Positions 4,591 through 44,878 are shown, counted from the stretch's first letter. The stretch: 64,000 nucleotides of DNA from Blasia pusilla (GCA_050084515.1 CM114271.1:39618001-39682000), one strand, 5' to 3'. Program-made: numbers and translations. Notes: generated from the sequence alone by a model not told the origin.

Positions 4591-4632
4591 CTAGATGGTT
4601 AGACTAGAGTTTGCCGCATAGCTTGAGCGTAG

Positions 4633-10080: not shown

Positions 10081-12119
10081 CTTACATCCGACTTGTAAAC
10101 AATAGATCCTTGACCATAACCTCTCGCCTCCAAAACTCTCCATTCTTGCTCCTCCTCCCAACTTTTAGAGAATCCTCTCCTCACTTTTCAACTAGTTTAT
10201 TTCTATCGTGGAGCAAGGTTGCATATGGAAAAAGTTTGTGTCCGAGAACATGACCATGTCTATAGACTTACGTCCTTACTACAACTTGGAAGGACTTGTC
10301 AATGTGCCCTCCATCTTCCCCATCTCCCTCATCCCTCCTATTTGCCTTCGTGATCCGCACTTTATCGTTTCTTTCTCGTCCCACTTCTACTCCCTTTCCC
10401 CTTATTACCCCGCCCACCTACTTGCTCTTGCCTTCCACCATGGACTATAAGTGTGGGCCCTACTTTTTAATCCACGTACATGCATATCTCCAAATTTGTC
10501 CATCCATGTTTGTCCTAGGGATGGACTTAAGCTTGTCTGTTTTTGTGTAACCATATCGTGGAGCTAAGTCTTCAAATTTTTGGGTAAGAAGTTTTTTTTA
10601 TAATATTGAAGGACATTTAGATGAGTGAGGTTTATATTACTATGTTATTTTTTTAAATTATTGGTTATAAACTATAAGAAATAACTAATGACTAAAAAAA
10701 AAGAGGAAAGCCATACTTGAGAAAAAATTGGAGTGAACCAAATCCCCTTTTAATAAGGTTTTTACTATCATGTTTTTTAGGATAGATTAGTGAGATCTAA
10801 TAGAGCGCCTTTAGGAGTAGTGGAGGATAGACTGAGGAGGTTGAGGATGACCTACTGAGGCCCCAAGAAACCTGAGGTTTCCCTTCGTTTCGGCTCATTT
10901 GGAGCAATATTGATGAACTTACGATTTTAGGTAAGTACCAGTTTGAGTATATGGTCAACTTTCTATTTTTGGTAAGTGGCTCTTGACCTTCTACATTAGG
11001 TCAAGATCCAAGGAGGTGACTTGGGAGCATAGGTTACCATGGAGAGAGTTTGGGAGAGGAGAGGGATATACCTCAAGGAGAGAGAGTTTAAGAGCTCATT
11101 CTGTCTTTGTTGAACCTCTTGGTATGAGGCGGCGGAGCTATGGTCTTGCTTGCTTTGTGTGTGTAATCCAGACCTCTCATTAGGAAAGTGGGTTTGGTTT
11201 GACATTGAAAGAGACATGTAAGAGTATACACATTTGAGAGCTATGGTGTTGAGAGAGATTGGATCTTATTTTACAAAGAGAGAATGAGTGAGTGAGAGAG
11301 CTTCACGGGGGAGCTCGCTAGCTGCTTGATGTTTGGTGCGGTTTGGGGGACCATGTTCCCCGCTTCATGGCTCATGGGAGTGCTCACCGGAGCAAGAGCC
11401 GTGCGAGTTTACTGTTTTACTTTGCTGATTTTTTTTGTACGGGAGAGTGGCACGCGGAAGCGCTGCCCAATTTTTGATAGGAATTGAGTATGGGGGCGGA
11501 TTGCTCCATGCAAGTGCTCTCTAGAGCACCATGTAGCTTGCTGATTTTTTTTCTCACACGTTTTACATTTATGTTGTCAAAAATCACCGCGAAAGCGTTG
11601 CTAAATTTTGTGTAGGATAAAGAGACATTGGGCTTTACAACAATACCCGTCAATTTTATTAGAATGTCCGATTCAAAATATTTTTGATATTGTTGTAGAT
11701 CGTGAAGTTGTGCACGATGTGCAATAGACGGTGCACAATTTTCAGTTGTGAGCAAATAATTATGATCAATCTTGCAAAACTGCCATTACTAGGCAATTTT
11801 TAGGGTTAAATTGTTCAAACCCCTAAACCAGCCGCCGCGCATGCGGTGGTCGTCGCCGTCACAGTCACCATCAACGGTCTGCCATCAATAATCAACCATC
11901 ATTGTCAAGAGTCACCATCAATGATCCATCGTCCACCGCCCATCGTTGGCTTCCGTCACCGTCTAGCGCTGCTCGGAGCCGCGTACGACCGTTGTCCACC
12001 TCACATTCGACCGAAGGCGTTGATCCGAGCTCGGCATTGTTATTTGGGATATTGAGTGCGCGTGTTTAGTTTTAGTGATTGAGGGATTACTTGCGAGATT
12101 GAGAATGATCGTGTGAGAG

Positions 12120-14700
12120 GGGCACGAGGGCCATCACGACGTCCTTTTGGCATTTTGAGAGGCGAGGTAGTGGACCTAAGAGTAGCTATGGAGGGTTTAC
12201 CCGGAGTGGTGCGAGGTTTCGAGGATCTCCACATGAGAGACCACCTTGATCTCCTTGTATGTCATCTTCAGATGAGGGGGAGCGTGTAGAGGAGTGTGTT
12301 AGTGATCCACGGTACACATTGAGTGGTCCTACTAGTTGGGCGTACGAGATGGACGATCGGGGAAGAGGACCGCGTTGATTTTTGGATATTGTAGGTACCA
12401 TAGAGCTACACGACTTTATTGTGCTGAGTTTAGGAGTTGGTGTGACTCACAACAGGCTAGGAAATCGAGAGATTTCAACCTATTTACAACATGGAATGAT
12501 ATGTTCCAACATTTAGAGGGGGCACCGTGGACGATTATCATGAGTTCTCCCACACATATACCCAAGAGATTGAGACATGGCGACTCTACTATGACCCACA
12601 CTATGTGTCATGGATGGAGCCGTTCGTAGATGAGGAGGAGGAGGTCAAGAGAGGCTACTTTCTCTTCCACAAGTGATGTTTTAGGAGGGGTCACTCGCAT
12701 TGGGCAGTTGCACTGTCTAGTCGGGTTTGTCCCAGGTTCAACCCCATGGTTGAGTTCTTTGTTGAGTTGAGGGCAAGCTACCAAGGGGTACGGATGGAGA
12801 AATTATGGAGCATCCACGAATTCTAGAGGCGCCTGGATGGGAGTTTGCGTAAGGCTTACACTCGCTTGCCGGTTGATCAACGTCACTCAAGGGATGATAA
12901 AAGCTCAGGCTATCCCGTCATGGTACGCAATGCTGGACTAGACCGTACGGACATGGGTGCGAGAGGGAGTGATTCTTATGAACACCTCCCCTATGTTGAT
13001 AGATGTTTTTAGGACCACCGAGAATATTGACCGCAACATGGCGGAGGAGACCGTATCCACCATGGATTCTGGGCGAGAGTAGTCATGATTGTCAGCACCA
13101 CTAGTGCACCAACGTGGACTCTGAGATAGGTCGACTGTGACACCACGAGCTCGGGGAGGATATCGGGAGGTTGTGCCATCGAGACCTGCGCCTTCATATG
13201 TGGCTCAGCGGCAACCACCTACGATTACTTGTTAGTCATGTGGTGCAGCCCATCATCAACGTGATTGCACTCGTGAGGGTCATGCACATGTGCCTCATCA
13301 TGGAGGAGGAGATGGTGCTACATCAAGAGGTTATCAGTGTGTGTCGCAACTCTCATAACCAAAGAACACCAAATAGGCGCAAAGCGGAACATTAGAACTC
13401 AAGTGGACTCATGCGTTGCGATGTTCGCGCTAAAGAGAGGCGTTTGGAAAGGTCTATTGGAAAATTCCAAGAGATGAAAGGTAGAATAGAGTTGTGATTT
13501 TCATGCATTAGTGGTTGCCACCAGGAAACCTAGACCAAACGTAAGCCAAGACTTGAGATGAGTCGAGTCTTGGAAGATTGGTTGCCAAAGAGGTGAGAAC
13601 CAATTTTGGAACACGATTAGCGTTTGGGGAATTTGACCATGTTTTGGAACATAAATTTTAGCCCAAAGATGTGTTCAAGACAAGTAAAGAGTTGAAAGCT
13701 TATCTTGAGACGCTTCCAACGCACTAAAGATCTCAGCAAACGCATAAGTACAGACTGAGATATTGGCCGGAAACGACTATGAGAGCAATCGGGTTGAGGG
13801 CCAATTGGAGAGGCCCGGGTTTCTTTCCCTAAATGTAGGGAACCCCGGAGATCCCCATAAGTACTAGTAAGGGAGGTGTCTCTCCAAGATGGCTTGGAAC
13901 ACGAATCCCCACTTTGAGCACCAAACGGCGTCTTAGAGGCATGAGATGGAACGAGAGTTTGGCGTTGGAACTTGAGACCCAAACATGATCCAAGGGAGTG
14001 GACTTTGTACGCCACACTTGGATTCCAACCCAAGATTCACTTTGTGCGAGTTTCGGTAAGGTACTCATTGGATGTCCATCAAACAGTTGGAACCGCCATA
14101 CGCGAAACGCTGTTTGAGGTTCTTGAACCGACCAGAAAGTCTGTCCCAAGTCTTTCGAGACTTGCCCGTGTTGTAAACCGCGAAACTAGGAAGGTTGAGC
14201 CTGATGAGAGACCGAGACGAGAACTCGGAAAGTTAGCCCACTGATTGATCCAAGACTCGACTAACCAAAGTGTGTGTTTGGATGCAGATCTGCATTGAGA
14301 GCGTGAACTATTGAACACACGCTTCCGCAACAACAAGATTAACGTTCAAGGAGAGTATGCGCACGATAGTGTGACTACTGTTACAGGTATGGTCACACCA
14401 TGCGCCACGTCTTTCAGTTTATACCGTGAGTTATATCTGGACCAAGGGCCATAGAGGGCACCGGAGCGAGTAGCCGGTCTGGGTGGGCCTAGAGATCGTG
14501 CACTAGGTGGTCTCGTTGGGGGACGAGGAGTTGGAGGTACCCAACAAGGTGGTGGAGCTGCTCGTGGAGGAGGTAGAGTCCCACCACCTACACGCGTCAA
14601 GGGAGATGCCGGACGTGAGGCTAGATGAGTGCTCAGATATAGCAGCTACATAAGCATATTGCCGCTATGGCATTGAGGTTACCCGATGCCGGATCCCTGG
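12120..14700 (+). pseudogene. Gag of element A (interrupted by solo LTR)
   Basis: AEFRSWCDSQQARKSRDFNLFTTWNDMFQHLEGAP is collinear with copy B Gag. The zinc knuckle is split by an insertion at 13342. Confidence 0.75.
13342..14368. mobile_element. Solo LTR (1027 bp) inserted in Gag of element A
   Basis: TGTCGC...GCACGATA termini; 5-bp TSD GTGTG (13337-13341 / 14369-14373). Copy B is uninterrupted at the same site (CAGTGTGACT at about 26551). Confidence 0.85.
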
Positions 14701-15247
14701 CATCGACATCATATGGAGCAGCCAAAGATATGGAGGATCCAAGTTGGATATGCGGGGTTGCCCAGATGGAGGCCGCTGCAGTTGTGACACCTGGAGTAGC
14801 CGTAGAGTTGGATCCACAACGAGGGGAAGCTAGGGAGCAGACCTGACTTCTTCAGTTGTTCATGTTGTGCGAGGCGATGAGGATCCCATCAATGGATCAT
14901 GATAAGAGTTCCCTGAGAGTTGGTGATGTTATTGGTTGGTAGGCACAGGAGGCAATGGGAGAAATGAGTGCGACAACTCCTATTGATGATGCTCAGGAGG
15001 AGCATGTGTTGAGTACAATGTTGGGGGCAGCCACGATGGTGTACCATGGTCTGCTATTTTCTGCTTCCGATGTTATGACATTGGGAGGTACGCCCGCCGA
15101 GGTGTGAGTGTGAGTTGGAGTTCCTGCATCATGTTCAAAGGTGATTGCAAAGGAGGTGATGGACCTGCCCTTGGAGCGGATGCTCGGGCCGTCCACGTCA
15201 GATTCATGGCAGTCTGCTATTGCTAGGATGGCGGAGATGCCCATGCC

Positions 15248-15679
15248 ATGATAGACCGTGCCATGGCTTCTCTTGGTGTTGTGTTGTTGGATAATCAGGG
15301 AGAGGTCTTCCAGTTGGTGAGTCCCAGAGGTAGAGCTTATAGTCCACAACACGTCTTGTTGGATTCAAAAACGCAACCGCTGATGTTGTGGAAAGCGTCA
15401 TTTAGAGGATTGGGCTTGACGAGAGCCAATGTGGAGCATTGTCCATTCCAGATACAGACATCCTTGGCTGGAGCAAGTACCACACAGTATATCACCCGAC
15501 AAGCGGTCGTGGTGAGGATTTTCCTGGGACATCCTACAAATGAGTCCGTGGTGCGAGCCAAGACGATAGTGACTGATGCAGAGTCCTGCCACGTCTTGGT
15601 TGGTGGAGCAGTGTTACATCCGATGGGATTTTCCGTGGATTATTGGGAGGAGTCAGTGTCCTACAGACCAGGATGGTAG
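15248..15679 (+). pseudogene. Retroviral-type aspartic protease of element A
   Basis: VLLDSKTQPLM (copy B reads LLD*GAQPLM, giving a DSG catalytic motif) ... CHVLVGGAVL. Confidence 0.75.
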
Positions 15680-16025
15680 TCAGGTGATGGGCGCCTAAGT
15701 ACATTACCCATTCGATTTATAGGTGCAGTGATCGAACGACGGCCAGGAGAGATGGCGACCTTAGCAACATTTAGCAATGCCATCACTTGGCCTAGTGATT
15801 TGATTGAGGGGCATGTCCATGCAGAGGATACTCCCATTCTTGATATCTTTATGGAGAGGAGTGTCATGGTAGCTGCATCAGTCTGTGGAGGAGAGGTGCC
15901 GCTTTGGGGCTCGACGGAGGAGCTTCGACGCTTAGCCACTGAGCATGTGCAGACCGCGTGGAGCGAGACGTTTGCACTAGAGTATGATGGATCAGAGGAA
16001 CCCTTGGTAGCCAACGAGTGCTGGT

Positions 16026-17069
16026 ATGATCCCATTGGACACCACCGCGATTGTGTGGTGCATCCCAGAGAAGGGTATTCGGGTGTTGGATCTCTTTTGA
16101 GGGATCAACACTGGGTTAGCTGTTGTTTTGCAGGTTGGAGTGCGCGTGTAGTTGCACCTGTATGTGGAGATTGATGATGTTGCAAGGCGCACTTCACTTC
16201 ACCATGTGGCGCAATTACGTCTATGTTTTCCCGACTTGTTGTCTGCGTCCGCCATTCAGGATTACTAGAATTCTCTACCAAGGGACATTTCATTGTTGGG
16301 GTCGTAGGACTTGGAGCACGTAGGGACCATAGACTTGGTCATTGCTGGTTGGCCATGTCTAGGCAAGTCGAGTGCTGGACGGGATAGCGGATTAGCTGAC
16401 ACTCGGTCCATGTTGTTTTGGGAGATGGTGCGGATCTTGTGACACTTGCAGGAGCATCAGTCTCGTCCTCGAGCATACATTGTGGAGGATGCACTGATTT
16501 TGGGCGATTCAAGGTCCCGTGTGATGACAAGTGCACATCAGGTGCGCGCATGGATTGGCTTGGACCATCGAGTTTGCTGGATGCGACGAGTGTGGATTCA
16601 CAAGGACATCACCCATGTCTTTGGTGGACCAACTTGGTACCACACAAGGTGTTGCGGAGGGCATATGCGAGAGAGGAGTGCCCCTTCGATTTGTTGGTGG
16701 ATTCTATATTGGACCCGGGCCATCGATCAGAGGCAGTGAGGCTAGATGATCGACCACCGTTGACTGTGGTCAACTGGATTGGCATGCCACAGGGCAGCCT
16801 TTCCCACATTGGTGAGTTTTCTCGCTTCCTATGCATTCAAGGAGGCCGGACTTGGCTTGGTTTGGGATGACTGGGTATATAGGTTGGTGGAGCCCAACCC
16901 CGATGAGCGAGAGCAAGCAATGGGATTCCCCACAAGAGTAACGGAAATATCGTTACTATCAGAGGCATCACGATGTCTTGTATTGGGTCACGCGATGGAC
17001 CTCAACTGCTTGACATGGATTTTCAGCTTAGGAGTAGCTGAGCAACGTCGTCGTTTGAGGATGCGATAG
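16026..17069 (+). pseudogene. DNMT3-like C5 cytosine DNA methyltransferase domain within the Gypsy polyprotein
   Basis: Manual translation: IRVLDLF*GINTGL (motif I, 16077), YVEID (II), DLVIAGWPCLG (IV, PC at 16353-16358), YIVEDA (VI, ~ENV), LLDATSV..GHHPCLWWTNL (VIII), EREQAMGFP (IX), RCLVLGHAM (X). Confidence 0.9.
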
Positions 17070-17371
17070 ATCACAGTAGTTGCGTTGGTGCACCCCATGC
17101 TTACCGAGAAGGTTGAGGCAATGGCTGGGGGCGAAACCAGAGGAGATCGACACACCAAGGATGATCGGGAGAGACACCCTTAGACTTCTTGGGATGTTTT
17201 TCATGTACGCCAGGAGAGGGTAGCCACAACATCGAGGTGGTTCTGGATACTGCATGTGGAGATCCAATTTTGCAGTTGGCTGTAGGGGAGCAATCAAGTT
17301 TTGTTGTGTGAGACGGGGTTGCACCATAGCAACCACTGACACCCGCGTCAAAGAGTCCTACTATAATCACG

Positions 17372-18400
17372 ATGGAGACTTGGGAGCCAGATATGGGCCC
17401 TAAGTTGACAAGAGGAGAGCGGCAGTGGATACACCTATTCCTTAGGAGTTATAAGAGGTTTTTTGCATCTAGTATGCATGATTTGGGTACGCAGAAGGGT
17501 CTAGGGATCCGCATTGAGTTGTCGAGTGACACACCGATCTTCCGACAATCTTAAAGATACAGTGACATGGAGAGGGATTTGATTCAGAGTAGGAGCCAGG
17601 ACTTGGTTGGAGCAGGACTAGTGGAAATGTCGCATGGAGAGTATGCATCTGCCACTGTCATGCCCGCCAAGAAGGATGTCCATGGCAACTGGACGGATAG
17701 GCGTATGTGTGGAGATTAACGATATGTCAATTGGCAGACAAAGTCCGATAGGTATGCCATGCCCACTCCAAAGGAGATCCTTGATGCTATTGGGCATGCA
17801 AAGGTCTTCAGTTTGTTAGATCTTCGAGCCGGATACAATCAGCTACCTATCACATTGGAGCACAAGGAGAAGACCGTATTTTGGGGCAACAATCCTCACA
17901 GGAAGGTTTGCTTGTACCAGTGGCGGTTCTTACCATTTGGGTTAAAGAGCACCCCGGATAAGTTTCAGAAGGTCATGGATAGGATCTTGGCAGGTCTGGA
18001 TTTTGTAAGGTGTTATATTGATGACATCATAGTCTTTAGTGCCACGGTTGAGGAGCATCTAGAGGAGGTGTTTCGACGATTGCAATGACAAGGGTTGAAG
18101 CTACATCCAGGCAAGTGCAAGTTCTTCTATGACTAGATTGAGTACCTAGGTCATACGATATACCCAGGGGGCCTTGGTGTGCAGGAGACAAAGGTAGAGG
18201 CTATTTCATGCATTCCACGTCTTAGAGATGTAAGTCGAGTTCGTGCATTCATGAGATTGGCAAACTTCTATCGACGGTACGTCAAGGATTTCAGCTCGAT
18301 TGCAAAGCGGCTAACCTTACTGACCAAGGTGGATAAGGAGTGACACTAGGGGGATGAGTAGGAGAGAGCATTTCAGCTGCTCAAGGGCACATTGACGTCC
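17372..18400 (+). pseudogene. Reverse transcriptase of element A
   Basis: FSLLDLRAGYNQL, LPFGLKS, CYIDDIIVFS (YIDD at 18014-18025), LHPGKCKF. Confidence 0.92.
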
Positions 18401-18419
18401 GCGCCCATATTGAGGAGAC

Positions 18420-18830
18420 CGATCAGGGGGTCTTTTCCAGTTGCATACCGATTGGAGCATGTTGGGGCTTGGAGTTGTGCTCATCGAGCATAACGATGAT
18501 GGTAGAGAGTTCGTGGTGGCTTACGCTAGTCGCTTGAACAACGTTGCAAAGACAAAGTATAGCTTGTATGAGGGTGAGTGTTTGGTTGTAGTGTGGGCTG
18601 TCGCACATTTCAGATGTTATCTATTCGGAAATCCCTTTACCATCTTTATTGATCATCAACCATTTAAGTGGTTGATGGAGTCCGACAAGGTTATAGGGAA
18701 GCTTACGAGGTGGGCTCTTTTGTTGCAAAAGTATGACTTCCAAGTAGTGTATAGACCTAGGATGCTCAACCAAGATGCAAATGGTTTGAGTTGTAACCCA
18801 TGCTCGAGTCAGCGAGATGCGACTGGAGCT
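18420..18830 (+). pseudogene. RNase H of element A
   Basis: LHTDWSMLGLGVVL...VVAYASR...YSLYEGECLVVVWAV.HFRCYL...DHQPFKW...RWALLLQ...DANGLS. Confidence 0.9.
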
Positions 18831-18925
18831 CGTTGGCATGGTAAGAGTGATAAGGAGTTGGTGCCAGATGGCATGCATCAGCCTATTTGGGCTCGCTAGC
18901 TATGGAGAGCTAGATTTCTGAGACT

Positions 18926-20435
18926 TTGATGGCGAGGTCTGATGGAGAGTCCTTAGATCCAGAGGCCGATGAGGAGACGATAGGTGGCCGAGAAATTCAC
19001 AACGATGGAGTGGTCTTGGAGTACCTACGTACAGGCAGCGTCGCGAGTATAGTGGGTGCTAGAGAGCGGGATTGGATCCTACAGCGAGCCAAACGGTTCC
19101 GGTGGAAGGGGACACATGTGTTGCAAGTGTGGGAGGATGGTAGAGTGCATGTAGTGCCTCATCCTTTGCATAGAGCACGTTTGGAGCGTCATGCCCATGA
19201 GGAATTGGATCATTTTGGAGTGAAGCGGATGTACAACTTGCTCCAATTTCAGTATTGGTGGCAAGGCATGCAGACCGACGTTCAACAATTTGTTGCTAGG
19301 TGCATGGTGTGTGATCGAGTCTGAGCATCGTTCAATGCTCTGACTCCATAATTACATCCTCTTTCGATCATGGGTTTTGGTTATAGATGGAGTTTGGATT
19401 TTGCATGACCTTTGCCTTTGACGGAGCACCATAGTCGTTATGTGTTGATGATGGTCGAGCACTTCTCGAACTGGATAGAGTTGGTTGCATTGCTTGACAA
19501 AGCGAGTGAGGGAGTAGCGTATGCCTTCCAAGATCGAGTGCTGAGTCATTACGGTGCACCAACTGAGGTGTTGACAGACCAAGATACAGAGTTCCGCGGG
19601 GAGTTTCAGACCTTGTATGATGACGCACTGATCAACCACCGCACTACTTCGCAAGATCATCCTGAGGCAGATGGACCAGCGGAGCGGGTTGTGCAGACAA
19701 TGAAGAGAGGACTATGTAAGTATGGCTTGCGGAGAGGTCGCCTAGGAGATTGGGACCTCCAGTTGCCGTGGTTGGCGATGCGATACAAATTCAGCAAGCA
19801 AGCATCCTTAGCGTCTTTCTCACCATACTTGCTTTTGTATGGCCGAGAGCCAGATTTACCTACAGCCATTCGTCGAGATGTTGGTGAGGTGTTGAACCTT
19901 AATGACCATGATTTATGGATGCAAGCATGTTCTCGAGATGGCTGAATTGTTTGGGAGAGTGATGCCCATGGCATTTGAGAAATTGGTGATTACGCGACAT
20001 CGGGATACATTGAGGTATGCGACTATTTTGGGGGGTGATTATCGACCTACTATCCAAAGGTTTCATCAGGGAGACTATGTCTACTTGCAGTTGACGGTAC
20101 CCACAATGTTGGATGTGATTGTAGGGCGGATTATCTTGAGAGTGCATGAGGTTCTGCCATCAAGTGTTGTCTTATTGGAGGGCCGAGATGGTATGGTTTG
20201 GAAGGACCATGTGCGTTATTGTGCACCGTGTCACCTTTCAAATATTGACGATACAATCGATCTGAGCTTAGCAGTAGTTCTTGCAGGCTTGCGATATATT
20301 TTGTGTGGTTCTACCCGTGGTGCAGCCACTATGCTAGTTCGTGATGGATGTTCGAGAGGATGGCATATGGCATGCTTGACGCCACCTCTCATTAGGGTTC
20401 CTCAGGGACGATGGATGTGTCCCGAATGTACATAG
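18926..20435 (+). pseudogene. Integrase (HHCC zinc finger + DDE core) with C-terminal PHD finger, element A
   Basis: HEELDHFG...CMVC; SLDFA.PLP, LTDQDTEF, HPEADGPAER; C-terminal ILCGS...DGCSRGWHMACLTPPL...WMCPEC. Confidence 0.9.
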
Positions 20436-21949
20436 AGTATGTAATTCTACATTCCAACTTGGGTCTGTGACATGGATGACAAGAAGGCGACAAATGATGG
20501 GGCCACATGAGCACACGACCTTCTTGCTCTTAGCGTCTGAGAGATGTATGTTACGGTAGGTAGGGATAGATGGCTATCTGGAGTTAGAGGGACCTAACCA
20601 CCAGCTAGGGGGCGATTGGAGATATTTTGGTACTTCTAGTCTCATTGTTTGGATGCCATGAGTTAGCATGGGATTGTCCGTGTTTGTGTGTGTGTTCGGT
20701 GAGAGTGATGTATATTGTGTAGCGATGTGTATGCGCACGACATTACAGACAAAAAGTGAGTTTGAACTAAGTGAAAGAGGAGTAGGAAACAAATACTTTG
20801 CAAGTGCAAAAATCCACTACTTTACGAATCCTTTACAAGTGTAGAAACCCACTACTTGGACTCTCATTTTTATGAATATTTTTCAAGTGAGCAGTGATTT
20901 AAATTTGTAATTTTTTATGATTGCTCAAATTGACAAATACCTACAAGTGACTCCCAGAGTTGCACAAAATTTCAAGTTGTTTATGAGCACCTTGCAAGCC
21001 TTTTGCAAATGAATTACAACTAAACCACAAGTATAAAAAATTGAAACTTCAAGCCACTAGCAATTTGCAAGGCCAATTACTAACATACCTTTGCCAGCTT
21101 ATGAGGCGTAGTAGCCGTATTATAGTTGCAGAAGACTTGCAACTTTGTGAGTCTTACACTTGCATTATTGAGAATTTGACAGAAGAATTCCAACTACAAT
21201 GCAATATAAAAAGTTTCGTTTTCTTACATTTGCAAATTAGTCATAGTTTAATCGCAAAATAACATATCAAAGTAGTGGTTTTTTCACTCACAAAGTAGCT
21301 AGTTGTTGCTCCATTTTCAGTAAGTTTTGACTACCTTTTAGGTCTATAAAACACCTTTTAATGTTGGATGTGGCTCCTTCCAAAAAATTTCCCTGGGATT
21401 TTTGTTTTTCTCCTTCATTTATTATAATTTGAAATAATAATTTTGGTAGAAAGAATTGTGATACTGTGAACTTCACTCATCTACATGTTCTTCAACATCC
21501 AAAAAAGTTCCTACCTAAAGAAATCTCAAGACTTAACTCCACTATAGGAACAAAAAAATTACAATGTGAGGAGAGGAGTCTCAAAAAGTTAGGAGGAAAA
21601 GAAAAAACGAAGCCATTTGGAGGCAAAGGGTAATTTATGACCAAGGTTTTAATTTGGTTATGGGACTCACAAATGACTATTTGCAAGTTTTGACTCCAAT
21701 ATGAGCCTCCATAATCATAGTTTGCGAGTCTCAAAAGCCATAATCTAGGAATTTGAATGGAAATCATGTTTTTGATTTTCCCTAGTTACAAGAAAAAAGG
21801 ATTGTCCAAATACTCAAACCAGAGGCAATCCACAAAGCTATATAGAGCCATAACGCAATCATAATACTATGAATTGGAAAAATTACAATCGCAATGGACT
21901 TGAAAATTAGCCACTCTTGACCAAAGTAGACTTGCAATGGAGGTGTGTC

Positions 21950-22800: not shown

Positions 22801-25338
22801 TGTTCTTGATTAAGCAAGCCAACTCTCTTCTTTGTATATGTGTGTATGAGAATGAAAATGGCGTTGGATTAGTATTTTCTGCATAAGAAGTCAATCGACC
22901 AATTGGGAATACCTTATAAACTATTAATTATCTTAGTCTCATTTCATGTAAGGAAGGTGAAAGTTGGAATCTACCTTCTAAATTGAGAATATTATTTGGA
23001 CTTGCAAGAGTTTCATTAAATGACATCTGGATGTGGATAAAAAAGATTTATTTCCACAACACAAGCAACTATAAACTAATAGCTCTACACTTGTGACCTT
23101 AATGAGATTAGTAACAAAGTATGTGAAGAATATCAATTCCTATGGATGATTGGGTTGATTTGGTGTAAGGATTGGGGTTGTGAATGTTCTTTACATAACC
23201 TAGTTCCAATTATTCTTCCTTGCTTAAACTTTGACTTATTCATTATCCAGTCTATTACGTCTTTTAGGATGGATCAGTGACATCTAGTAGAACACCTTCT
23301 TGAGTAGTGTAGGACAAGCTCAGTAGGTTGAGGATGACCTACTGAGGCCCCGGGAAACCCGAGAAAGCATGTTTCCCCTTCGTTTTGGCTCATTTGGAGT
23401 CATATTAAGAAACTTACTATTTTAGGCAAGTACCATTTTGAGTATATGATCGACTTTTTGTTTTTGGTAATTAGCCCTTGAACTCCTACTTCAGGTCAAG
23501 AGCCAAGGAGATGACTTGGGAGAAAAGGTTACCATGGAGAGAGTTTGGGAGAGGAGCGGGGTATACCTTAAGGAGAGAGAGCTTGAGAGCTCATTCTCTC
23601 TTTGTTGAACCTCTTGGCATGAGGCGGCGGAGTTATGGTCCCTTGCCTTGTGAGTGTAACCCAAGCCCCTCATTAGGAGAGTGGGTTGGGTTTGACATGA
23701 GAGAGAGTGCACACCTTTGAGAGCTATGGTGTGAGATGGTGTAGAGAGAGATTGGATCTTACTTTAGAAAGAGAGAAAGAGAGAATGAGAGAGTGAGAGA
23801 GCTTCATGGGGGAGCTCGCTGGTCACTCGCTGTTTTTGTAGGTTGGGTACCGTGTTCCCCATTCAGCGGCTCATGGGAGTGCTCACCGGAGTAAGGGTTG
23901 CTTTGATTGTTCTTTGCATTTGCCGATTTTTCATGTGGAAGAGTGGCGCGCGGAAGCGCTATCCAATTTTTGATAGGGATTGAGTATGGGGGTGGATTGC
24001 CCCATGATGGTGCTCTCAAGAGCACCATGTAGCTTGTTGATTTGTATTTTTATAGATTTTACATTTTTTTGGGAGAAATCAGCGCGGAAGCGCTGCCAAA
24101 TTTTGTGTAGGAGAAAGAGACATTGGGCTTTAGGACAATCCTTGTCAATTTTTACAGGAATATCCAATTCTAAATATTTTTAATACTATTGTAGATCGTG
24201 AAGCTATGCACATTGTGCAACAAACAATGTGCAATTTAGAGTTATGAGCAAAAAGTTATGGTCAATCTTGCAAAACTGCCATTGCAAGGATATTTTTAGG
24301 GTTAAATTGTTCAAACCCTAAACCAGCCGCCACCGTCATCGCCAATGGTCCGCCGTCGACGGTCAACCATCACCATCAATGATCAACCATCACCATAAAT
24401 GTTCAACCATCACCGTAAATGGTCCACCGTCCGTTGTCCACCCTTTGGTTGCCATTGCCGCCATTACGGAGTGGAGGATCTTCCACGACGTTTGTTGATT
24501 CTCTGACTTGCGTCGCCATCACGTACTTTGTTTTGGCTACCACCGTCATCACAGTTTTGTCATCAACTAGTGATGGCACCTGACATCAGGTTATGGTATT
24601 TGAGTTTTGATTTCATGCTACTATGTTGTGATTGGTAGCCGCTCGACGACGACGGAGTACCATACTGTGACGCCCGTAGCCGCGACGCGCCGCTGATTGC
24701 CGCGTTGTGCCGCTTGTGGCCACACCGCACTGTCTAGATCGCGGAGCCGCACCGTCATTATGGAGCAGAGTGTGGGTTTATTGTTGATTAAGGAGGGTAT
24801 ACCGCCGAGTATTGCATCCCACCATCAAGGGCCGTGCCGTTCGTAGTCGTTCCGTGCCGCGTGCAACGCCGCACCGTTTTGCTGGAACCGCAGTCTATCG
24901 AGGAGTTTTGAGCAGCGTCAGTACGGGAGGAGTATGACTTGCTGATTGGGGGAGTTGACTCCATGAACGAGTTGGGATTGAGAGTTGCACTTTCTGAGGA
25001 GCGACATCGAGATGTGTGAAGGTTACCCATTCTGGTCCTTTACCCTACACGCGTGAGGGATTCTGGCATTTGGGTAGTTTATTTGGGGATATTGGGTTGT
25101 ATGGATGCTGAGAACATCATTTATGTATGTGTTTTAGGGGACATAGACTTGTGTGGGATGTCCAGAGTTGAGAGTAGGTTGTCGATGAGATGATAGTCTG
25201 GTCAATTTGCCGCACCACGCCGCTTGTTACCGCACGTTACACGTCTCGGGGAGGGAGAGTGTAGATCGAGTGCCGCATGTTTGGGATGAGTGATTCAGGG
25301 ATTACTTGCAAGGTTGAGAGTGATCATGTGAGAGGGGC

Positions 25339-28190
25339 ATGAGGGCCATCACGGCGTCCTTTCAGGATTTTGAGAGGCGAGGTAGTGGAATTGAGAGTAG
25401 CTCTGGAGGGTTTACCCGGAGTGGTGCGAGGTTTCGAGGGTCTCCACGTGAGAGACCACCTCGATCTCCTTCTATGTCGTCTTCAGACAAGGGAGAGCAT
25501 GTAGAGGAGTGTGTTAGTGATCCACGGTACAGATTGAGTGATCCTACCAGTTAGGCGTACGAGATGCACGACCGGGGTAGAGGACCGCGTGGGTTTTCGG
25601 ATGCTATAGGCACCATAGAGCTACACGACTTCATTGCGGAGTTTAGGAGTTGGTGTGACTCACAGTGGTCTAGGAACTCTAGAGAGTTCAACCCGTTTAC
25701 AACATGGAATGGTATGTTCCAGCATTTAGAGGGGGCACCCATGGACGATTACCATGAGTTCTCCCATAGATATGCCCAGGAGATTGAGGCATGGCGACTC
25801 TACTATGACCCACACTATGTGTCATGGATGGAGCCGTTCGTAGATGAGGAGGAGGAGTCATGAGAGGCTACTTCCTCTTCCACTAGTGATGTTTTAGGAG
25901 GGGTCACTCGCACGGGAGCAGTTGCATCGTCTAGTCGGGTTCGTCCCTGGTTCAACCTTGTGGTTGAGTTCTTTGCTGAGTTGAGGGCGAGCTACCAGAG
26001 GGTACGGACGGAGAAGTTGCGGAGCATCCACGACTTCCAGAGGCGCCAAGGTGAGAGTTTGCGTTAGGCTTACACTTGCTTGCGCCGGTTGATCAACGTC
26101 ACTCAGGGGGTGATAGAGGCTCAAGCTATCCAATCATGGTATGCGATGCTGGATCGGACCCTGCAGATATGGGTGCGGGAGGGGGTGCTTCTTATGAACA
26201 CCTCCCCTACGTTGAGAGATGTTTTTAGGACCATCGAGAACATTGAGCGCAACATGGCGGAGGAGAGCGTAGCCACCATGGGTTCTGGGCGAGAGCAGTC
26301 GCGATTGTCTACACCACCTGTGCAGCAACGTGGACTCCGAGATAGGTCAACTGTGGCACCACGAGCTCAGGGAGGATACCGAGAGGCTGTGCCACAGAGA
26401 CCTGCGCCTTCATATACGGCTCAGCAGCAACCACCTACTATTACTTGTTGGTCACGTGGTGGAGCTCATCATCAACGCGATTGCAGTCGTCAGGGTCATG
26501 GACGTGTGCCTCAGCATGGAGGAGGAGATGGTGCTACACCAAGAAGTTATCAGTGTGACTATTGTCAGAGGTATGGTCATACACGCGCCAGGTGTTTCAA
26601 TTTACATCATGAGTTACGTCCGGACCGAGGGCTAGAGAGGGCACGAGAGCGAGTAGCCGGTCTGAGTGGGCCTAGAGATCGTACACCAGGTGGTCCCGTT
26701 GGGGGATGAGGAGTTGGAGTTGCCCGACAGGGTGGTGAAGCTGCCCGTGGAGGAGGTAGAGTACCACCACCTAGACGCGCAACGGAAGATGCCGGAGGTG
26801 AGGTTGGGATGGCTGCTCAGATACAGCAGCTATAGGAGCATATTTCCGCTATGGCATTGAGATTACCCGATGTCGGATCCGTGGCATCGACATCATATGG
26901 AGAAACCAGAGATCTGGAGGATCTTGGTTGGATGTGCGAGGTTGCCCATATGGAGGTAGCCGCAGTTGTGATGCGTGGAGCAGCTGTAGAGTTGGATCCA
27001 CAGCGAGGGGAAGCCAGAAAATAGACTAGGCTTCCTCAATCTTTCACGTTGTCTGAAGCGATGAGGATCCCATCGATGGGTCCTCATCAAAGTTCCTGGA
27101 GAGTTGGTGATGTTGTTGGTGTGTAGGCACGGAGGGCGATGGGAGAAGCGAGTGCGACGACTCCTATTGTTGATGCTCAAGAGGGGCATGTGTCGAGCAC
27201 GTTGTTGGGGGCGGCCACCGTTATGTACCGCACTCCTTTATTTTTTTCTTTCGATGTTATGACGTTGGGGGGTACGTCCACCGAGGCTTTTCGGCTGGCC
27301 GCTTCACTATGTGAGCGCGGAGTTGGAGTTTGTGCATCACGTTCAGAGGTGATTTCAAAGGAGGTGATGGACCTGCCCTTGGAGCGGATGCTCGGGCCGT
27401 CCACGTCAGATTCATGGCAGGCTGCGGCTACTAGGATGGCGGAGATGCCCGCTAGACCCGCGATAGAGCGTACCATGGCTTCTCCTGGTGTTGTTGCTTG
27501 ATAACCAAGGAGAGGTCTTTGAGTTGGTGAGTCTCGGAGGTAGAGATTTAAGTTCGCAACACGTCTTGTTGGATTGAGGAGCGCAACCCTTGATGTTGAG
27601 GAAAGCGTCATTCAGAGGATTGGACTTGACAAGAGCCGATGTGGAGCGTTATCCATTCCGAAGACAGACATCCTTGGGTGGAGCGAGTACCACATAATAT
27701 ATCACCCGACAACAGGTCGTGATGAGGATTCGCCTGGGACGTCCTACAGATGAGTCCGTGGTGCGAGCCAAGGCGATAGTGACTAATGCAGAGTCCTACG
27801 ACGTCTTGGTTGGTGGAGCAGTGTTATATCCGATGGGGTTTTCCCTGGATTACTGGGAGGAGTCAACGTCCTACAGACCAGGATGGCAGTAAGGTGATGG
27901 GCGCCTTAGCTCAACATCCGTTTGATTCACATGTGCAGTGATCGAGCAACGTCCTGGAGAGATGGCGACCTTAGCAGCATTTAGTAGTGCCATCACTTGG
28001 CCTAGTGATTTGATTGAGGGACATGTCCATACAGAGGATACTCCCATTTTTGATATTTCTATGGAGAGGAGTGTTATGGTAGCTGCATCATTCCGTGGAG
28101 GAGAGGTACTGTTGTGGGGCTCGACTGAGGATCTTCGACGATTGGCAGATGAGCACGTGCAGACCGCGTGGAGCGAGGCATTTGCATAAG
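25339..28190 (+). pseudogene. Gag and protease of element B
   Basis: ELHDFIAEFRSWCD...; zinc knuckle CDYCQRYGHTRARC; protease LLD*GAQPLM. Mostly one frame with TAG/TGA stops. Confidence 0.8.
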
Positions 28191-28196
28191 AGCGTT

Positions 28197-31496: not shown

Positions 31497-31498
31497 GT

Positions 31499-31572
31499 AA
31501 GAGGAGAGGAAGAGAGGAAGAGAGGAAGAGAGGAGAGAGGAGAGAGGAAGAGAGGAGAGAGGAGAGAGGAAA
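31499..31572. repeat. (AGAGG/AAGAGAGG)n purine-rich simple repeat
   Basis: Direct reading; lies at the junction of element D and the MULE. Confidence 0.8.
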
Positions 31573-35856: not shown

Positions 35857-35895
35857 TCCAAGAAGATTCCTACGAGAGGAGACTGAGAATGAGAA

Positions 35896-36110: not shown

Positions 36111-36204
36111 TTCACCCCCTCCAAACCTGCACATCCTCCGGTATGTGCCGAAAACATCAAGACTTCTTGCTATAGACTTACTTATGTTGTGCCTCTAGAC
36201 ACAT

Positions 36205-41977: not shown

Positions 41978-42022
41978 CTTGATAAGACTCAACTTGCAAA
42001 CACAAACTACCGCCTCAAAGAG

Positions 42023-42040: not shown

Positions 42041-42042
42041 TT

Positions 42043-43313
42043 TGTCATGTCGAGAGTCTTTCTTGAGCAAGGCGGGCCTTCTAGCTGCGGTAGATGCGGT
42101 TGATGCAAGGTGAACTCTCTAATAAGTTCTCCTTTTTCAATACAAAATTATGATGTACACTCTCCATTCTCTCACGACAGGTATCACAAATGGAAGTGCC
42201 GAGGCGATCACTTCTTCGTAACATCGGACCCCAAAATTCCTAACTATAAAATCCCTATAAACTATTTTACGCTTGTACACGAGGAAGATAGCACAACTAG
42301 TGTTAAACCCTACTTGAGCAGGCCTATTGACATCCATGGATCGCTATATAAGGACATACAAAGTACAATCCCATGTCCTTCCATATGTGACAATAGGAAG
42401 AATCACCGGAGTTGGAGATTGCATGACCTGGTTCATGAACGCCTCCCCAAAGTGATAAACTAAATAGCGAGTGAACCAGTACCTATCTACAAAGAGTACC
42501 TTGACATGGTAAGGATTGAGGAAAGGAAAGTCGGGCACAGCTCATGCTCCACCCCTATCCATGCTTGACACATATTCTCTACTCTCCTCAAGAATGGGTT
42601 TTGGCGGAGTTATTCTCCCAAGAGGGGTAATCCACTCTCATTGGGGAAGTAACAAGCCAAAACTTCCGCTATTTTAGTATGACTAAACTCCTCTACGGTG
42701 ACAAACCTCTCATCCCCACACACACACACCACACTCTAGAAATCTCTCAAAGAATAGACCATGGTCAAGTTACTCTCCCAAGAGGGGTGATCCACTCTCA
42801 TTGGAAGAGCAAGCAATCCCAAAGCCATACACTCAAGAGAGACACGAGAGACTCAAGATGTGGAATAGAAGGTGATGAACCCTTGAAGGTCCCTCCTCTT
42901 TATATACTCACAAGGGATCCACAAGAGTACGAAATAGAGCTTATCTTATCTTGTGCCACATGGCTTCCTCCCAAGGCTTAGCCAATCACATTTTGACACA
43001 AGTAGATTTCCTCTTATCTCTTCCAAAATATCCTCTTTTACCCACATGATATTTTCCAAATTACCCCAACTAACCTAGCCACCAACCAAGACTACTTTTG
43101 CTTTTCATTAAAGCAACTACTTTACTTTTATAAAGTCATCTTTTATTTATTATCTCCTTTTCCTAAAGTTGGGCCCGCATAAAAGAGGCACCATAAAGAG
43201 GTTTAAACATAAGAATCTCCTTTTTCTAAGCCAATTTACTTAATACTAATGAAACTCTATCTAACACTTAATGACGAAGGAATTTACACAGTGGTTGATT
43301 TTACTATACGACA
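42043..43313 (-). repeat. 5' LTR of element F (1271 bp)
   Basis: TG...CA termini, PBS adjacent; element B integrase resumes at 43314. Confidence 0.88.
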
Positions 43314-43925
43314 CCGTACTTGCTACTTTATGGCCGAGAGCCAGATTTACCAACGGCCATTCGTCGAGATGCTGGTAAGGTGTTGGACCTTGATGACCCA
43401 GATGTATGGATGTGAGCATGTTCTCAAAGGGCTGAGTTGTTTCGGAGAGTGATGCCCATGGCGTTCGAGAACTTGGCGTTTGTGCAACATCGGGATACGT
43501 TGAGGTATGCGACTATTCGGGGTGGTGGTTATCGACCAACTATCTAGAGGTTTCATCAGGGAGATTATGTCTTCTTACAATAGAGGGCATCAACGACGTT
43601 GGATGTGATTGCAGGGCACACTATCCTCTGAGTGCGTGAAGTTTTGCCATCCGATGTTCTCTTGCTGGAGGGACGCGCTGGTCTGGTTTGGAAGGACCAT
43701 GTTCGTTATTGTGTGCCATGTCACCTTCCTAACATTGATGGTACAGTAGATCCGAGCTTAGCAGTAGTTCATGCAGGCTTGCGTTGTATGCTGTGTGGTT
43801 CTGCCCGTGGTGCGGCCACGATGCTAGTCTGTGATGGATGTTCGAGAGGATGGCATATGGCATGTTTGACGCCACCTCTCACTAGGGTTCTTCAAGGACG
43901 ATGGATGTGTCCCAGATGTACATAG
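43314..43925 (+). pseudogene. Integrase C-terminus + intact C4HC3 PHD finger of element B
   Basis: CMLC...CDGC...HMAC...WMCPRC (43785-43922); all eight zinc ligands present. Confidence 0.9.
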
Positions 43926-44105: not shown

Positions 44106-44878
44106 ATTGGAGATATTTTGGTACTTCTTGTCTCATTGTTTGGATGCCATGAGTTAGCATGGGATCGTGCGTGTTTGTGTGTGTGTGTTCCGTGACAACG
44201 ATGTATGTTGTGTAGCGATGTGTATGCGTATGACAACAGTCACATCTTTTAGGATATATCGGTGAGATCTAGTAGAGCACCTTCTTGAGTAGTGTAGGAC
44301 AAGTTGAGTAGGTCGAGGATGATCTGCTGCGGCCCAGGGAAACCTGAGAGAGAATGTTTTCCCTTCGTTTCGGCTCATTTGGAGCCATATTAAGGATCTT
44401 ACTATTTTAGGTAAGTACCATTTTGAATATATGATCGACTTTTAAATTTTGGTAATGAGCCCTTGACCTCCTACATCAGGTCAAGAGCCAAGGAGATGAC
44501 TTGGGAGAATAGATTACTATGGAGAGAGCTTGGGAGAGGAGAGGGGTATACCTCAAGGAGAGAGAGCTTGAGAGCTCATTCTCTCTTTGTTGAACCTCTT
44601 GGCATGAGGCGGCGGAGCTATGGTCCCTTGCCTTGTGAGTGTAACCCAAGCCTCTCATTAGGAGAGTGGTTTGGGTTTGACATGAGAGAGATTGCACACC
44701 TTTGAGAGCTATGGTATGAGATGGTGTAGAGAGATATTGGATCTTACTTTATTGGAGATATTTTGGTACTTCTTGTCTCGTTGTTTGGATGCCATAAGTT
44801 AGCATGGGATCGTGCGTGTTTGTGTGTATATCCGTTGACAACGATGTATGTTGTGTAGCGATGTGTATGCGCACGACA
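44106..44878 (+). repeat. 3' terminal Y-X-Y repeat block of element B
   Basis: Y1 44106-44235, X2 44238-44750 (copy of 23253-23765 and 10766-11272), Y2 44751-44878 (copy of 20615-20742). Confidence 0.88.

Follow-up and report, generated by a model that had tools for sequence, protein, structure and literature searches.

A pseudogenised Ty3/gypsy-type element with a DNMT3-like methyltransferase domain and an integrase PHD finger, and its relatives in bryophytes

Introduction

Chromoviruses are Ty3/gypsy elements with a chromodomain at their integrase's C-terminus, and the animal proteins DNMT3A, DNMT3B and DNMT3L carry an ADD domain. A Gypsy element with a DNMT3-type domain, KnitGypsy-Dnmt3, has been described in Klebsormidium nitens (de Mendoza et al. 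2018, PMC5890265); according to this description, Ka/Ks of the DNMT domain is < 0.2, and no methylation was produced by the domain in yeast, a result which the authors judged inconclusive. In elements termed EpiLTRs, described from Cymbomonas and Euglena, an adenine methyltransferase of Dam type is found together with a DNMT4-related DNMT and a chromodomain (bioRxiv 10.64898/2026.05.21.726589), and PHD fingers are known in other transposons, CR1, Rehavkus and Chlamydomonas elements (cited in PMC8557442).

We have analysed a window of 64,000 nucleotides of Blasia pusilla DNA containing two related copies, A and B, of a retroelement. Copy A, at 10766-20742 on the plus strand, is one Ty3/gypsy-type element with Gag, protease, a DNMT3-like methyltransferase, reverse transcriptase (RT), RNase H, integrase and a PHD finger. 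The best explanation, to which we assign a probability of roughly 80%, is a dead copy of a bryophyte family of the Gypsy-DNMT3 type, for which we infer stop codon readthrough, tethering by the PHD finger and self-marking by the DNMT. A preliminary description had proposed a self-contained writer-plus-reader system; this interpretation as a whole is supported in part, such a function being putative.

Results and Discussion

Structure and decay of copy A

All domains of copy A lie on the plus strand in the order originally read from the sequence, Gag-PR-DNMT-RT-RH-INT-PHD (Table 1), and Pfam and tblastn give the pol order of Ty3/gypsy elements, protease, RT, RNase H and integrase. The ends are exact, 10766 being the first base of repeat A and 20742 the last base of repeat B, and agree with joints of 20742 to 10766/10768 in DNA reads of the source organism, which place the family start at 10766/10768. 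Gag and protease calls in copy A are motif-based rather than Pfam calls, and Asp_protease_2 matches in relatives are weak (E 1e-4 to 3e-4). A CCHC remnant is present in gag at 14370-14396, and the protease motif, LLDSKTQ at 15356-15376, has lost the active-site glycine. Gag is split by a foreign insert of ~1 kb at 13342-14401, which is absent from copy B and missing in other family copies, the joint 13341->14402 occurring in 38 DNA reads. By tblastn, the Marchantia ORF1 protein (P0284) matches the DNMT region at 16026-17198 (E 6.6e-139) and an ORF2-type protein (P0004) matches 17366-20432 (E 2.5e-178), ORF2 terminating with TAG at 20433-20435. The rve match at 19409-19942 (E 2.3e-6, 28.2 bits) is below the Pfam cut-off of 32.6.

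Table 1. Positions of element features in the window.
Feature	Position	Strand	Evidence
Copy A 5' direct repeat A (LTR-like)	10766..11273	+	81% identity to copy B 3' A repeat 44247-44751; 79% to copy B 5' region
Copy A gag, decayed	12364..14894	+	tblastn with Marchantia ORF1 (P0284), residues 9-488
Copy A protease and conserved linker	15239..15967	+	tblastn, 47.6% identity to Marchantia ORF1 residues 597-842
Copy A DNMT3-like C5 cytosine methyltransferase domain, pseudogenised	16056..17066	+	PF00145, E 1.3e-7
Copy A in-frame TAG, ORF1/ORF2 boundary	17327..17329	+	context TAG CAA CCA
Copy A reverse transcriptase	17720..18340	+	RVT_1 17720-18085, E 1.6e-14; YIDD at 18014-18025
Copy A RNase H	18414..18896	+	RT_RNaseH, E 4.1e-30
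Copy A integrase, H2C2 zinc domain and DDE core	18914..19942	+	Integrase_H2C2 18914-19321, E 2.4e-14; rve
Copy A PHD finger, integrase C-terminus	20289..20432	+	PF00628, E 4.6e-8, within 19896-20432
Copy A terminal repeat B	20615..20742	+	90% identity to 44751-44878; also aligns to 44106-44235
Copy B, whole	23252-44878	+	alignment to copy A
Copy B 5' part: repeat A, leader, gag, protease, linker	23252..28192	+	79-88% nucleotide identity to copy A
Copy B integrase C-terminus and PHD finger	43311..43922	+	61.8% identity to P0004 residues 825-1028
Copy B 3' end, split direct repeats	44106..44878	+	B1 44106-44235, A 44247-44751, B2 44751-44878

The DNMT was undetected by Pfam on the separate ORF pieces of copy A and was found on the frame read through with X at stops (31.8 bits, cut-off 22). 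A non-rearranged DNMT3-type domain is present within the coding region of the element, with motifs I-VI and IX-X collinear with those of its best solved relatives, DNMT3A (E 1.2e-9), DNMT3B/3C and DRM2, and with 1331 library matches at E<=0.001. Motif I is broken by a stop, and the sequences at motifs IV and VI are GWPCLG and VEDA. Copy A is a long-dead pseudogene copy: the domain, with its altered catalytic motifs, contains five in-frame TAG/TGA stops (16098, 16149, 16266, 16305 and 16440), and its reading frame shifts twice, near 16.57 and 16.79 kb. It lacks the open frame with intact motifs I, IV, VI, IX and X required of an active DNMT3 and is unable to perform any of the functions proposed for the family.

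Selection on the DNMT and the PHD finger

Purifying selection acts on both DNMT and PHD. Between two naturally intact relatives, L048 and L061, dN/dS is 0.12 for the DNMT, 0.115 for the protease, 0.055 for the PHD finger and 0.028 for the RT; the window DNMT compared with 60 loci gives a median of 0.20 (range 0.14-0.34), and the window PHD compared with loci gives 0.13 over 22 pairs in copy A and 0.08 over 13 pairs in copy B, dS being near saturation in several of these comparisons (pS 0.6-0.7). Among 61 mostly decayed copies the DNMT median is 0.56, with values <1 in 99.3% of 1,824 pairs.

The DNMT-like domain could be retained for a non-catalytic or RNA role instead of writing 5mC on element DNA: it might serve the structure of the protein or bind DNA, divert silencing factors of the host as a decoy, or methylate RNA. 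We consider this improbable, since the window element falls in the bryophyte-type clade, where motifs I, IV (PCQ, in GWPCQG) and VI (ENV) are kept in 13/13 rows, and dN/dS is 0.12-0.20 across the domain. Such a role would be in keeping with the inactivity of the KnitGypsy-Dnmt3 domain in yeast, inconclusive according to its authors (PMC5890265), and with the motifs of a sister arrangement, RT-RH-DNMT-IN-PHD, in Gypsy polyproteins of green algae, where GxPC is found in 40/90 rows, ENV in 23/90 and all four simple motif patterns in 3/90, although these patterns are crude and may undercount. In the tree, the DNMTs of this arrangement stand apart, 90/90 rows falling in one clade with an SH-aLRT of 87.

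Coding plan of the family

The ancestral plan of the family consists of ORF1 (Gag-PR-DNMT), a single in-frame UAG and ORF2 (RT-RH-IN-PHD). L048 has an ORF1 of 1369 aa with protease and DNMT, a TAG and an ORF2 of 1047 aa with RT, RNase H, integrase and PHD finger, all in one frame, and L061 follows the same plan. Among related loci, a stop followed by CAA CCN is observed at the ORF1/ORF2 junction in 50 of 56 matches (37 TAG, 13 TAA), and the junction flanks are in the same frame in 25/33 loci. This conserved in-frame stop lies between DNMT and RT, and even the ancestral element had no single uninterrupted ORF. The single ORF with dN/dS <1 for which the preliminary description suggested a test was borne out as to selection (~0.12-0.20 for the DNMT, 0.06-0.13 for the PHD finger) but not as to the frame, and release of all parts from one polyprotein, also suggested there, would occur only via stop codon readthrough. 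The plant-virus readthrough consensus is UAG CAR YYA; together with conservation of the stop this suggests that the UAG may be read through, a separate start of ORF2 being the alternative.

The DNMT-PHD pairing is real and conserved at the family level. Of 23 related loci of sufficient length, 21 have a PHD finger downstream of the DNMT, at a distance of 3.1-4.3 kb in 18 and a greater distance in 3, and 2 have none; both domains are present in L048 and L061 and in 46/58 DNMT-matching polyproteins, and in a related lineage, P0273, the DNMT is present and the PHD finger absent. Named relatives include at least 15 gene models of Marchantia polymorpha, together with Calypogeia fissa (both liverworts) and the moss Sphagnum fallax.

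Properties of the PHD finger

The C4HC3 zinc-ligand pattern is complete in copy B (43779-43922) and in 9/9 relatives examined, and copy A retains six of the eight ligands. Among fingers of solved structure, those scoring best are from CHD4, PHF12, KDM5 (PHD1), KAT6A, PHF21A, AIRE, DPF3, UHRF1 and ATXR5. The fingers of CHD4, KDM5 PHD1, PHF21A, AIRE, DPF3, UHRF1 and ATXR5 bind unmodified H3K4 or the H3 tail, and by analogy the family PHD finger is predicted to read H3K4me0 tails. Chromodomain PF00385 was not listed at E <= 0.01 for the window ORF pieces, including 19896-20432, where the PHD finger is found instead. Since a stop codon, RT, RNase H and integrase stand between the DNMT and the finger, the latter looks like an integration-targeting module, comparable to the chromovirus chromodomain, rather than an ADD-like DNMT regulator, and the pairing of the ADD-DNMT3 kind first proposed is not upheld.

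A single coupled reader-writer, in which the PHD finger would steer or license the methyltransferase as in ADD-DNMT3, perhaps within a complex or a readthrough product left uncleaved, appears quite improbable. It would account for the co-occurrence given above, for the resemblance to fingers reading the unmodified H3 tail and for the position of the DNMT immediately before integrase-PHD in the RT-RH-DNMT-IN-PHD arrangement; however, in the family of the window element ~1,000 residues and a stop codon separate DNMT and PHD, the PHD finger sits where chromoviruses have their integration-targeting chromodomain, and the P0273 lineage has the one domain without the other.

Copy B and reads of the source organism

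In line with the flanking body and PHD finger noted for it in the preliminary description, copy B shares gag, protease and linker, which lie at 25564-28180 in this copy, and the integrase C-terminus and PHD finger, but it does not share the DNMT, RT, RNase H or integrase core. Its 5' part matches ORF1 residues 4-843 (tblastn), stopping short of the DNMT, with the CCHC at 26554-26580 and the protease motif at 27566-27586. The DNMT is missing because 28192-43311 has been replaced by other sequence.

The family is high-copy in the source organism, with RNA reads from the sense strand. From a sample of ~1% of one WGS run, 124,425 DNA reads match the element at >=85% likeness, and 4,809, 5,607 and 5,023 RNA reads match in three runs, covering all 30 bins. 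The direction of RNA reads is ~10:1 in favour of that expected for sense RNA, presuming the usual stranded library. Most RNA reads are <95% like copy A and therefore derive from other copies, which may be intact or decayed.

From the absence of the DNMT in copy B and from the unrelated 1-kb insert in copy A gag, it might be suspected that the DNMT of copy A came to lie here by chance, as a nested insertion or a piece of a host DNMT3 pseudogene, and only resembles a part of the element. This is rejected with near certainty, as the same domain occupies the same position in frame with the upstream protease in Marchantia and Calypogeia gene models, is found in 309 metagenome stretches (80 of these retrieved) and has a DNA read depth in the source organism of 554-1,240 in DNMT bins, comparable to 1,424-2,002 in RT bins, its loss from copy B being explained by the replacement described above.

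Proposed mechanism

For a living member of the Gypsy-DNMT3-type family of which copy A is the dead representative, we propose that ribosomes would mostly halt at the UAG, so that Gag-PR-DNMT would be produced in Gag-like amounts, and that rare readthrough would give full Gag-Pol, from which the protease would then free the individual parts. On the model of the chromovirus chromodomain, the integrase PHD finger may tether the integration complex to nucleosomes with H3 tails free of K4 methylation, that is, silent, gene-poor chromatin, and the DNMT, all catalytic motifs of which are kept in the bryophyte-type clade, would methylate the new DNA of the element or its landing site.

A broader scenario is speculative and rather doubtful: an ancient green-lineage Gypsy clade whose integrase-PHD reads unmethylated H3K4 would have gained a DNMT3, which remained catalytically intact in bryophytes and, being encoded upstream of a leaky UAG, is produced in amounts like those of Gag; the family is still transcribed, and present in very many copies, in a land plant, these elements choosing silent chromatin and writing their own CG methylation. 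If so, they could make a real contribution to the host methylome and could be a route for moving or renewing DNMT3-type genes in plants.

Relation to described elements

As in chromoviruses, a histone reader is carried on the C-terminus of a DDE integrase, plausibly directing integration into silent chromatin, but the reader here is a C4HC3 PHD finger and not a chromodomain; both occur together in only 2/58 DNMT-matching polyproteins. The catalytic domain is of the type found in animal DNMT3A/3B/3L and a PHD-like zinc finger is present in the same genetic unit, whereas ADD and PWWP domains are absent here and the plain PHD finger is on the integrase, not adjoining the catalytic domain. Database proteins of Haematococcus lacustris, Chromochloris zofingiensis and Mesostigma viride with the RT-RH-DNMT-IN-PHD arrangement, for which no name was found in the literature searched, also possess a DNMT3-like domain and have the integrase-PHD module in common with the window family, at 40-48% identity over ~500 residues that extend as far as the C-terminus; they differ in having their DNMT after RNase H and before integrase. 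EpiLTRs, as described, likewise unite DNA methyltransferase domains with a chromatin reader in an LTR retrotransposon, but theirs are Dam-type and DNMT4-related enzymes with a chromodomain, in contrast to the DNMT3-like domain and PHD finger observed here. In CR1, Rehavkus and Chlamydomonas elements the PHD finger is similarly an accessory domain of a mobile element; these are other element classes, and the passage in PMC8557442 describes no DNMT partner.

The window element belongs with or next to published Gypsy-DNMT3 elements, a kinship judged on the description of KnitGypsy-Dnmt3, its nearest counterpart among known elements, and the DNMT-plus-PHD family extends an element kind already described in the green alga Klebsormidium. 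Common to both are the Gypsy type, a non-rearranged DNMT3-type domain in the coding region, a streptophyte host and purifying selection on the DNMT (Ka/Ks < 0.2 there, 0.12-0.20 here). In the present family the hosts belong to the land plants, with relatives of liverwort and moss type, a PHD finger is unmentioned in the text and three supplements of PMC5890265, and the DNMT, placed there 'in the Pol polyprotein ORF', is here at the end of ORF1, after the protease and before the UAG; drawn from the description of KnitGypsy-Dnmt3, these differences are possibly only apparent.

The repeats are also alike, an A-coding-B-A-B order being given for KnitGypsy-Dnmt3 in the legend of Fig. 4c (PMC5890265). 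Copy A has the repeats A...B alone, finishing at B without a 3' A repeat. In DNA reads of the source organism, A-to-B joints are found in 395 reads and B-to-A joints in 124. A clear target duplication was not found in the flanks of the window copies. The A-coding-B-A-B (DIRS-like) order is observed in copy B, in which identity is 91.9% between the two A repeats, over 509 nt, and 92.4% between B1 and B2, and in one related locus (L068), which has the termini TGTCATG...CACGACA (TG...CA) and a 4-bp AAGG target duplication.

Domain organization and decay of copy A

Copy A, the element at positions 10766 to 20742 of the window, is a single retroelement on the plus strand and is dead. The preliminary description had assigned it the order Gag-PR-DNMT-RT-RH-IN-PHD, an order borne out by Pfam matches, by a read-through match to PF00145, by tblastn and by Gag and protease motifs. 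Pfam scans of single ORF pieces of copy A gave no match to the DNMT, but a continuous translation of the frame, with each stop written as X, matches PF00145 at E 1.3e-7 (31.8 bits; cut-off 22). The structures solved nearest to this DNMT are DNMT3A (E 1.2e-9), DNMT3B/3C and DRM2, and motifs I-VI and IX-X occur in normal, non-rearranged order. In tblastn, queried with one Marchantia ORF1 model plus one ORF2-type protein, gag, protease, linker, DNMT and the RT-to-PHD region map along copy A without overlap and, together with the CCHC and LLDSKTQ motifs, this layout therefore indicates that the claimed order is correct. Both end coordinates proposed for the element are exact, as judged from repeat comparison and read joints.

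Table. Features of copy A and of the retroelement nested in copy B (window positions).
Feature	Position	Strand	Evidence
Gag CCHC	14370-14396	+	motif-based
Protease LLDSKTQ	15356-15376	+	motif-based
Reverse transcriptase	17720-18085	+	Pfam on ORF pieces, E 1.6e-14
RNase H	18414-18896	+	Pfam on ORF pieces, E 4.1e-30
Integrase zinc domain	18914-19321	+	Pfam on ORF pieces, E 2.4e-14
Integrase core	19409-19942	+	Pfam, E 2.3e-6, below Pfam cut-off
PHD finger	inside 19896-20432	+	Pfam on ORF pieces, E 4.6e-8
Nested element, terminal repeats	35896-36110, 43099-43313		215 nt, 99% identical
Nested element, RNase H-integrase ORF	38052-36208	-	open, 615 codons
Nested element, gag-like ORF	42118-41222	-	299 codons

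Decay is evident throughout copy A, in which the longest surviving ORF is no more than 179 codons. Five in-frame TAG/TGA stops, along with two frame changes, disrupt the DNMT, a stop cutting motif I while motifs IV and VI read GWPCLG and VEDA, respectively; two of the eight zinc ligands of the PHD finger are gone and the 3' A repeat is absent. Compared with family reads from organism A, the source of the WGS and RNA reads mapped on the element, copy A carries A for G at 342 sites and T for C at 273, the opposite differences (G for A and C for T) numbering 68 and 83, respectively, a bias of the pattern expected from C-to-T decay in a methylated repeat. Dead and intact copies could not be told apart by their CpG observed/expected values (0.55-0.78). 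The gag of copy A is also interrupted by a 1.06-kb insert (13342-14401) missing from copy B, the second copy in the window, and from other family copies, in which position 13341 is joined to 14402. Within this insert, ~130 nt (13822-13953) are covered by opposite-direction RNA reads with sharp loose ends and 100% agreement; this piece may belong to another expressed repeat or be an exon. Copy A is flanked on both sides by inverted matches of 76-78% identity (10126-10632 and 21469-21624) and may have inserted into another repeat with inverted ends.

A bryophyte family with intact members

A protein of Calypogeia fissa matches the RT-RNase H region of copy A at 70% identity, and Marchantia polymorpha Mp_2g26090, which has PF00145 among its recorded Pfam domains, matches it at 68%. 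The Marchantia DNMT part, used as query, retrieved 29 proteins, including at least 15 Marchantia models and proteins of Calypogeia and Sphagnum fallax. Typical Gag-protease-DNMT models are ~1,250-1,430 residues in length, and a second set of ~1,030-1,080 residues is composed of RT-RNase H-integrase-PHD. A scan of metagenome contigs detected 309 relatives, 80 of which were retrieved for study; most are decayed, as copy A is. One of these loci, L048, is intact, with an ORF1 of 1,369 residues containing protease and DNMT, a single TAG and a same-frame ORF2 of 1,047 residues containing RT, RNase H, integrase and PHD. A second, L061, follows the same plan except for one frameshift early in ORF1. 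Among the 23 loci having more than 4.3 kb beyond the DNMT, a PHD is located 3.1-4.3 kb downstream in 18, farther away in three and is absent in two. The possibility that the DNMT is a chance chimera at the copy A locus was rejected, as a DNMT occupies the same position in Marchantia and Calypogeia models and in metagenome relatives.

A conserved stop between ORF1 and ORF2

The last DNMT motif and the motif preceding RT share a frame in 25 of 33 loci, mostly at a distance of 492 nt; the mismatch in frame between the two domains in copy A is thus attributed to decay, and a -1 frameshift between DNMT and RT was rejected on the same count. The in-frame stop at the junction is retained in 50 of 56 matches, as TAG in 37 and TAA in 13, and nearly all of these continue with CAA CCN, the window junction being GCA CCA TAG CAA CCA (17321-17335, TAG at 17327-17329). 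Because it persists in dozens of copies that are otherwise decaying, the junction stop is ancestral. In plant viruses, UAG CAR YYA is the classical context of a leaky stop.

Selection on the DNMT and PHD

The comparison of L048 with L061 gives dN/dS values of 0.12 (DNMT), 0.115 (protease), 0.028 (RT) and 0.055 (PHD), and of 0.37-0.43 in the linker and ORF1 tail. The window DNMT gave a median of 0.20 (range 0.14-0.34) against 60 loci. In pairs with the loci, the PHD of copy A yielded 0.13 (22 pairs) and that of copy B 0.08 (13 pairs), with 0.20 between copies A and B; all such ratios are rough, since distant pairs are near synonymous saturation. Ratios among the decayed loci themselves are higher (medians: DNMT 0.56, PHD 0.64), as is expected because much of their divergence reflects decay after insertion. 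Every row of the bryophyte-type clade (13 of 13) keeps motifs I, IV (GWPCQG) and VI (ENV). The preliminary description had named an out-of-frame DNMT, neutral evolution and a lack of co-occurrence with the PHD as grounds for abandoning its proposal; at the family level the DNMT is in frame, is not neutral as judged from dN/dS, and co-occurs with a PHD in 21 of 23 loci.

Split direct repeats

The full layout of the element is A-coding-B-A-B, in which A and B are split direct repeats. Copy B starts with repeat A and ends with B1 (44106-44235), A (44247-44751) and B2 (44751-44878), and the same A...B-A-B layout is observed in L068, a full element from another organism (1676-10805 of its contig), with termini TGTCATG...CACGACA and a 4-bp AAGG target duplication. 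L068 thereby shows that the split-repeat form goes in as linear DNA via an integrase-type cut. In organism A, 395 WGS reads span the joint from A end to B start and 124 the joint from B end to A start, with four letters between. The Fig. 4c legend for KnitGypsy-Dnmt3, a published Klebsormidium nitens element, describes a DIRS-type repeat structure with Gypsy domain composition, and the layout of the window family is the one described there (PMC5890265). No convincing target duplication was observed around copies A and B, and no direct repeats were detected in L048, L034 and L045 at the settings used, the latter probably reflecting contig ends or decay. A further joint, from 20742 to 10835 (B end to 70 nt inside A), is present in 18, 21 and 20 RNA reads in three runs and in a single DNA read, and might be an RNA-level event or a variant copy.

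Abundance and transcripts in organism A

A DNA sample of 1,966 million letters, ~1% of a single WGS run, contains 124,425 reads that map on the element at a likeness of at least 85%, only 152 of which reach at least 99%. Summed depth is 554-1,240 in the DNMT bins, 1,424-2,002 in RT and 1,502 in the PHD bin. RNA reads on the element number 4,809, 5,607 and 5,023 in three runs of one study and cover all 30 bins; their first mates fall on the minus strand at ~10:1, which, given the usual stranded library, means sense RNA. The likeness of most RNA reads to copy A is below 95%, and other copies are therefore their source.

Wider relatives and an alternative DNMT position

In a representative library, the DNMT query matched 1,331 proteins at E <= 0.001. 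Most of the 31 long matches scanned are Gypsy polyproteins of the order RT-RNase H-DNMT-integrase-PHD, a few having the DNMT ahead of RT. The DNMT of one RT-RH-DNMT-IN-PHD protein, used in turn as query, retrieved 58 proteins, 46 with PF00628, the named sources being Haematococcus lacustris, Chromochloris zofingiensis and Mesostigma viride. Bryophyte-type and algal proteins are 40-48% identical over ~500 residues of integrase-PHD, up to the very end, and 35-43% identical in RT-RNase H; however, the DNMT lies exactly at the RNase H/integrase boundary in the algal proteins whereas it ends ORF1 in the bryophyte type. In a quick tree built from 149 DNMT rows, rooted at the midpoint only and built with labelled host DNMT3 left out, the algal arrangement forms one clade (all 90 of its rows, SH-aLRT 87) and the bryophyte type a separate clade of 13 rows (SH-aLRT 98). 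All four simple catalytic patterns are matched in only 3 of the 90 DNMT domains of the RT-RH-DNMT-IN-PHD arrangement. A further lineage, represented by database protein P0273, encodes Gag-PR-DNMT-RT-RH-IN as a single ORF without a PHD. PHD and chromodomain occur together in one polyprotein in database proteins P0346 and P0348, and a Tudor-like domain follows the PHD in P0129.

Proposed mechanism and significance

Retrotransposons encoding the type of enzyme that normally silences them are known in a charophyte alga and in dinoflagellates. The analysis shows how the family is coded, that this plan is conserved and that transcripts exist; beyond this, we envisage Gag-PR-DNMT as the main product, with the full polyprotein arising by readthrough of the junction stop. 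The PHD, which occupies the place of the chromodomain in chromoviruses, would steer integration; its best solved matches are the fingers of CHD4, PHF12, KDM5 PHD1, KAT6A, DPF3, PHF21A, AIRE, UHRF1 and ATXR5, which read the H3 tail in its unmodified state. The DNMT would then methylate new element DNA, a role proposed by de Mendoza et al. for DIRS elements (PMC5890265). Against this step, the Klebsormidium DNMT domain is reported to be inactive in yeast, as human DNMT3B was too (PMC5890265).

One review describes transposon-encoded methylases as absent from land plants such as tracheophytes (PMC6338049), and both DNMT3 within a streptophyte Gypsy (PMC5890265) and transposon PHD fingers (PMC8557442) have been published. 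No description of bryophyte DNMT-carrying retrotransposons, or of a DNMT-plus-PHD Gypsy, was found in the literature searched, and the available supplement text of PMC5890265 contains none of the terms 'PHD', 'KnitGypsy', 'PF00628' or 'Marchantia'. Within that literature, four features are apparently undescribed: the occurrence of the family in land plants, the regular association of its DNMT with a PHD on the integrase, a DNMT that closes ORF1 ahead of a conserved stop, and the two alternative DNMT positions on a common integrase-PHD backbone; KnitGypsy-Dnmt3 was compared by description, and its Fig. 4c may already show some of these features (PMC5890265). The window and its relatives place in bryophytes a DNMT3-carrying Gypsy family which consistently combines the DNMT with a histone-reader finger on the integrase. 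The family already lies unrecognised among Marchantia gene models, some copies being named DNA cytosine methyltransferases, and bryophyte DNMT3 gene counts may contain transposon copies. With this family, the question of how a transposon benefits from encoding a methyltransferase can be addressed in a tractable model plant.

Copy B and neighbouring sequence

Copy B (23252-44878, plus strand) shares gag, protease and linker with copy A, together with the integrase C-terminus and a PHD of intact pattern, in agreement with the shared flanking body and PHD proposed previously. Its DNMT, RT, RNase H and integrase-core stretch is swapped for other sequence, and its interior holds a young nested Ty3/gypsy element on the minus strand (35896-43313). 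The stretch replacing DNMT to integrase (28192-35896) contains a GC-rich segment (0.52-0.56); a third, distant gag-like fragment, aligned with residues 15-350 of Marchantia ORF1 (27-80%), is located at 30351-31376, and several ORFs of 100-225 codons occur on the minus strand at 32375-35500. GC skew is strong, +0.19 to +0.27 in 12000-32000 and -0.26 to -0.30 in 36000-42000, the latter corresponding to the minus-strand element, such that G exceeds C on the sense strand of both retroelement families. Elsewhere in the window, a 154-nt unit is present as two adjacent copies, 86% alike, at 54473-54812.
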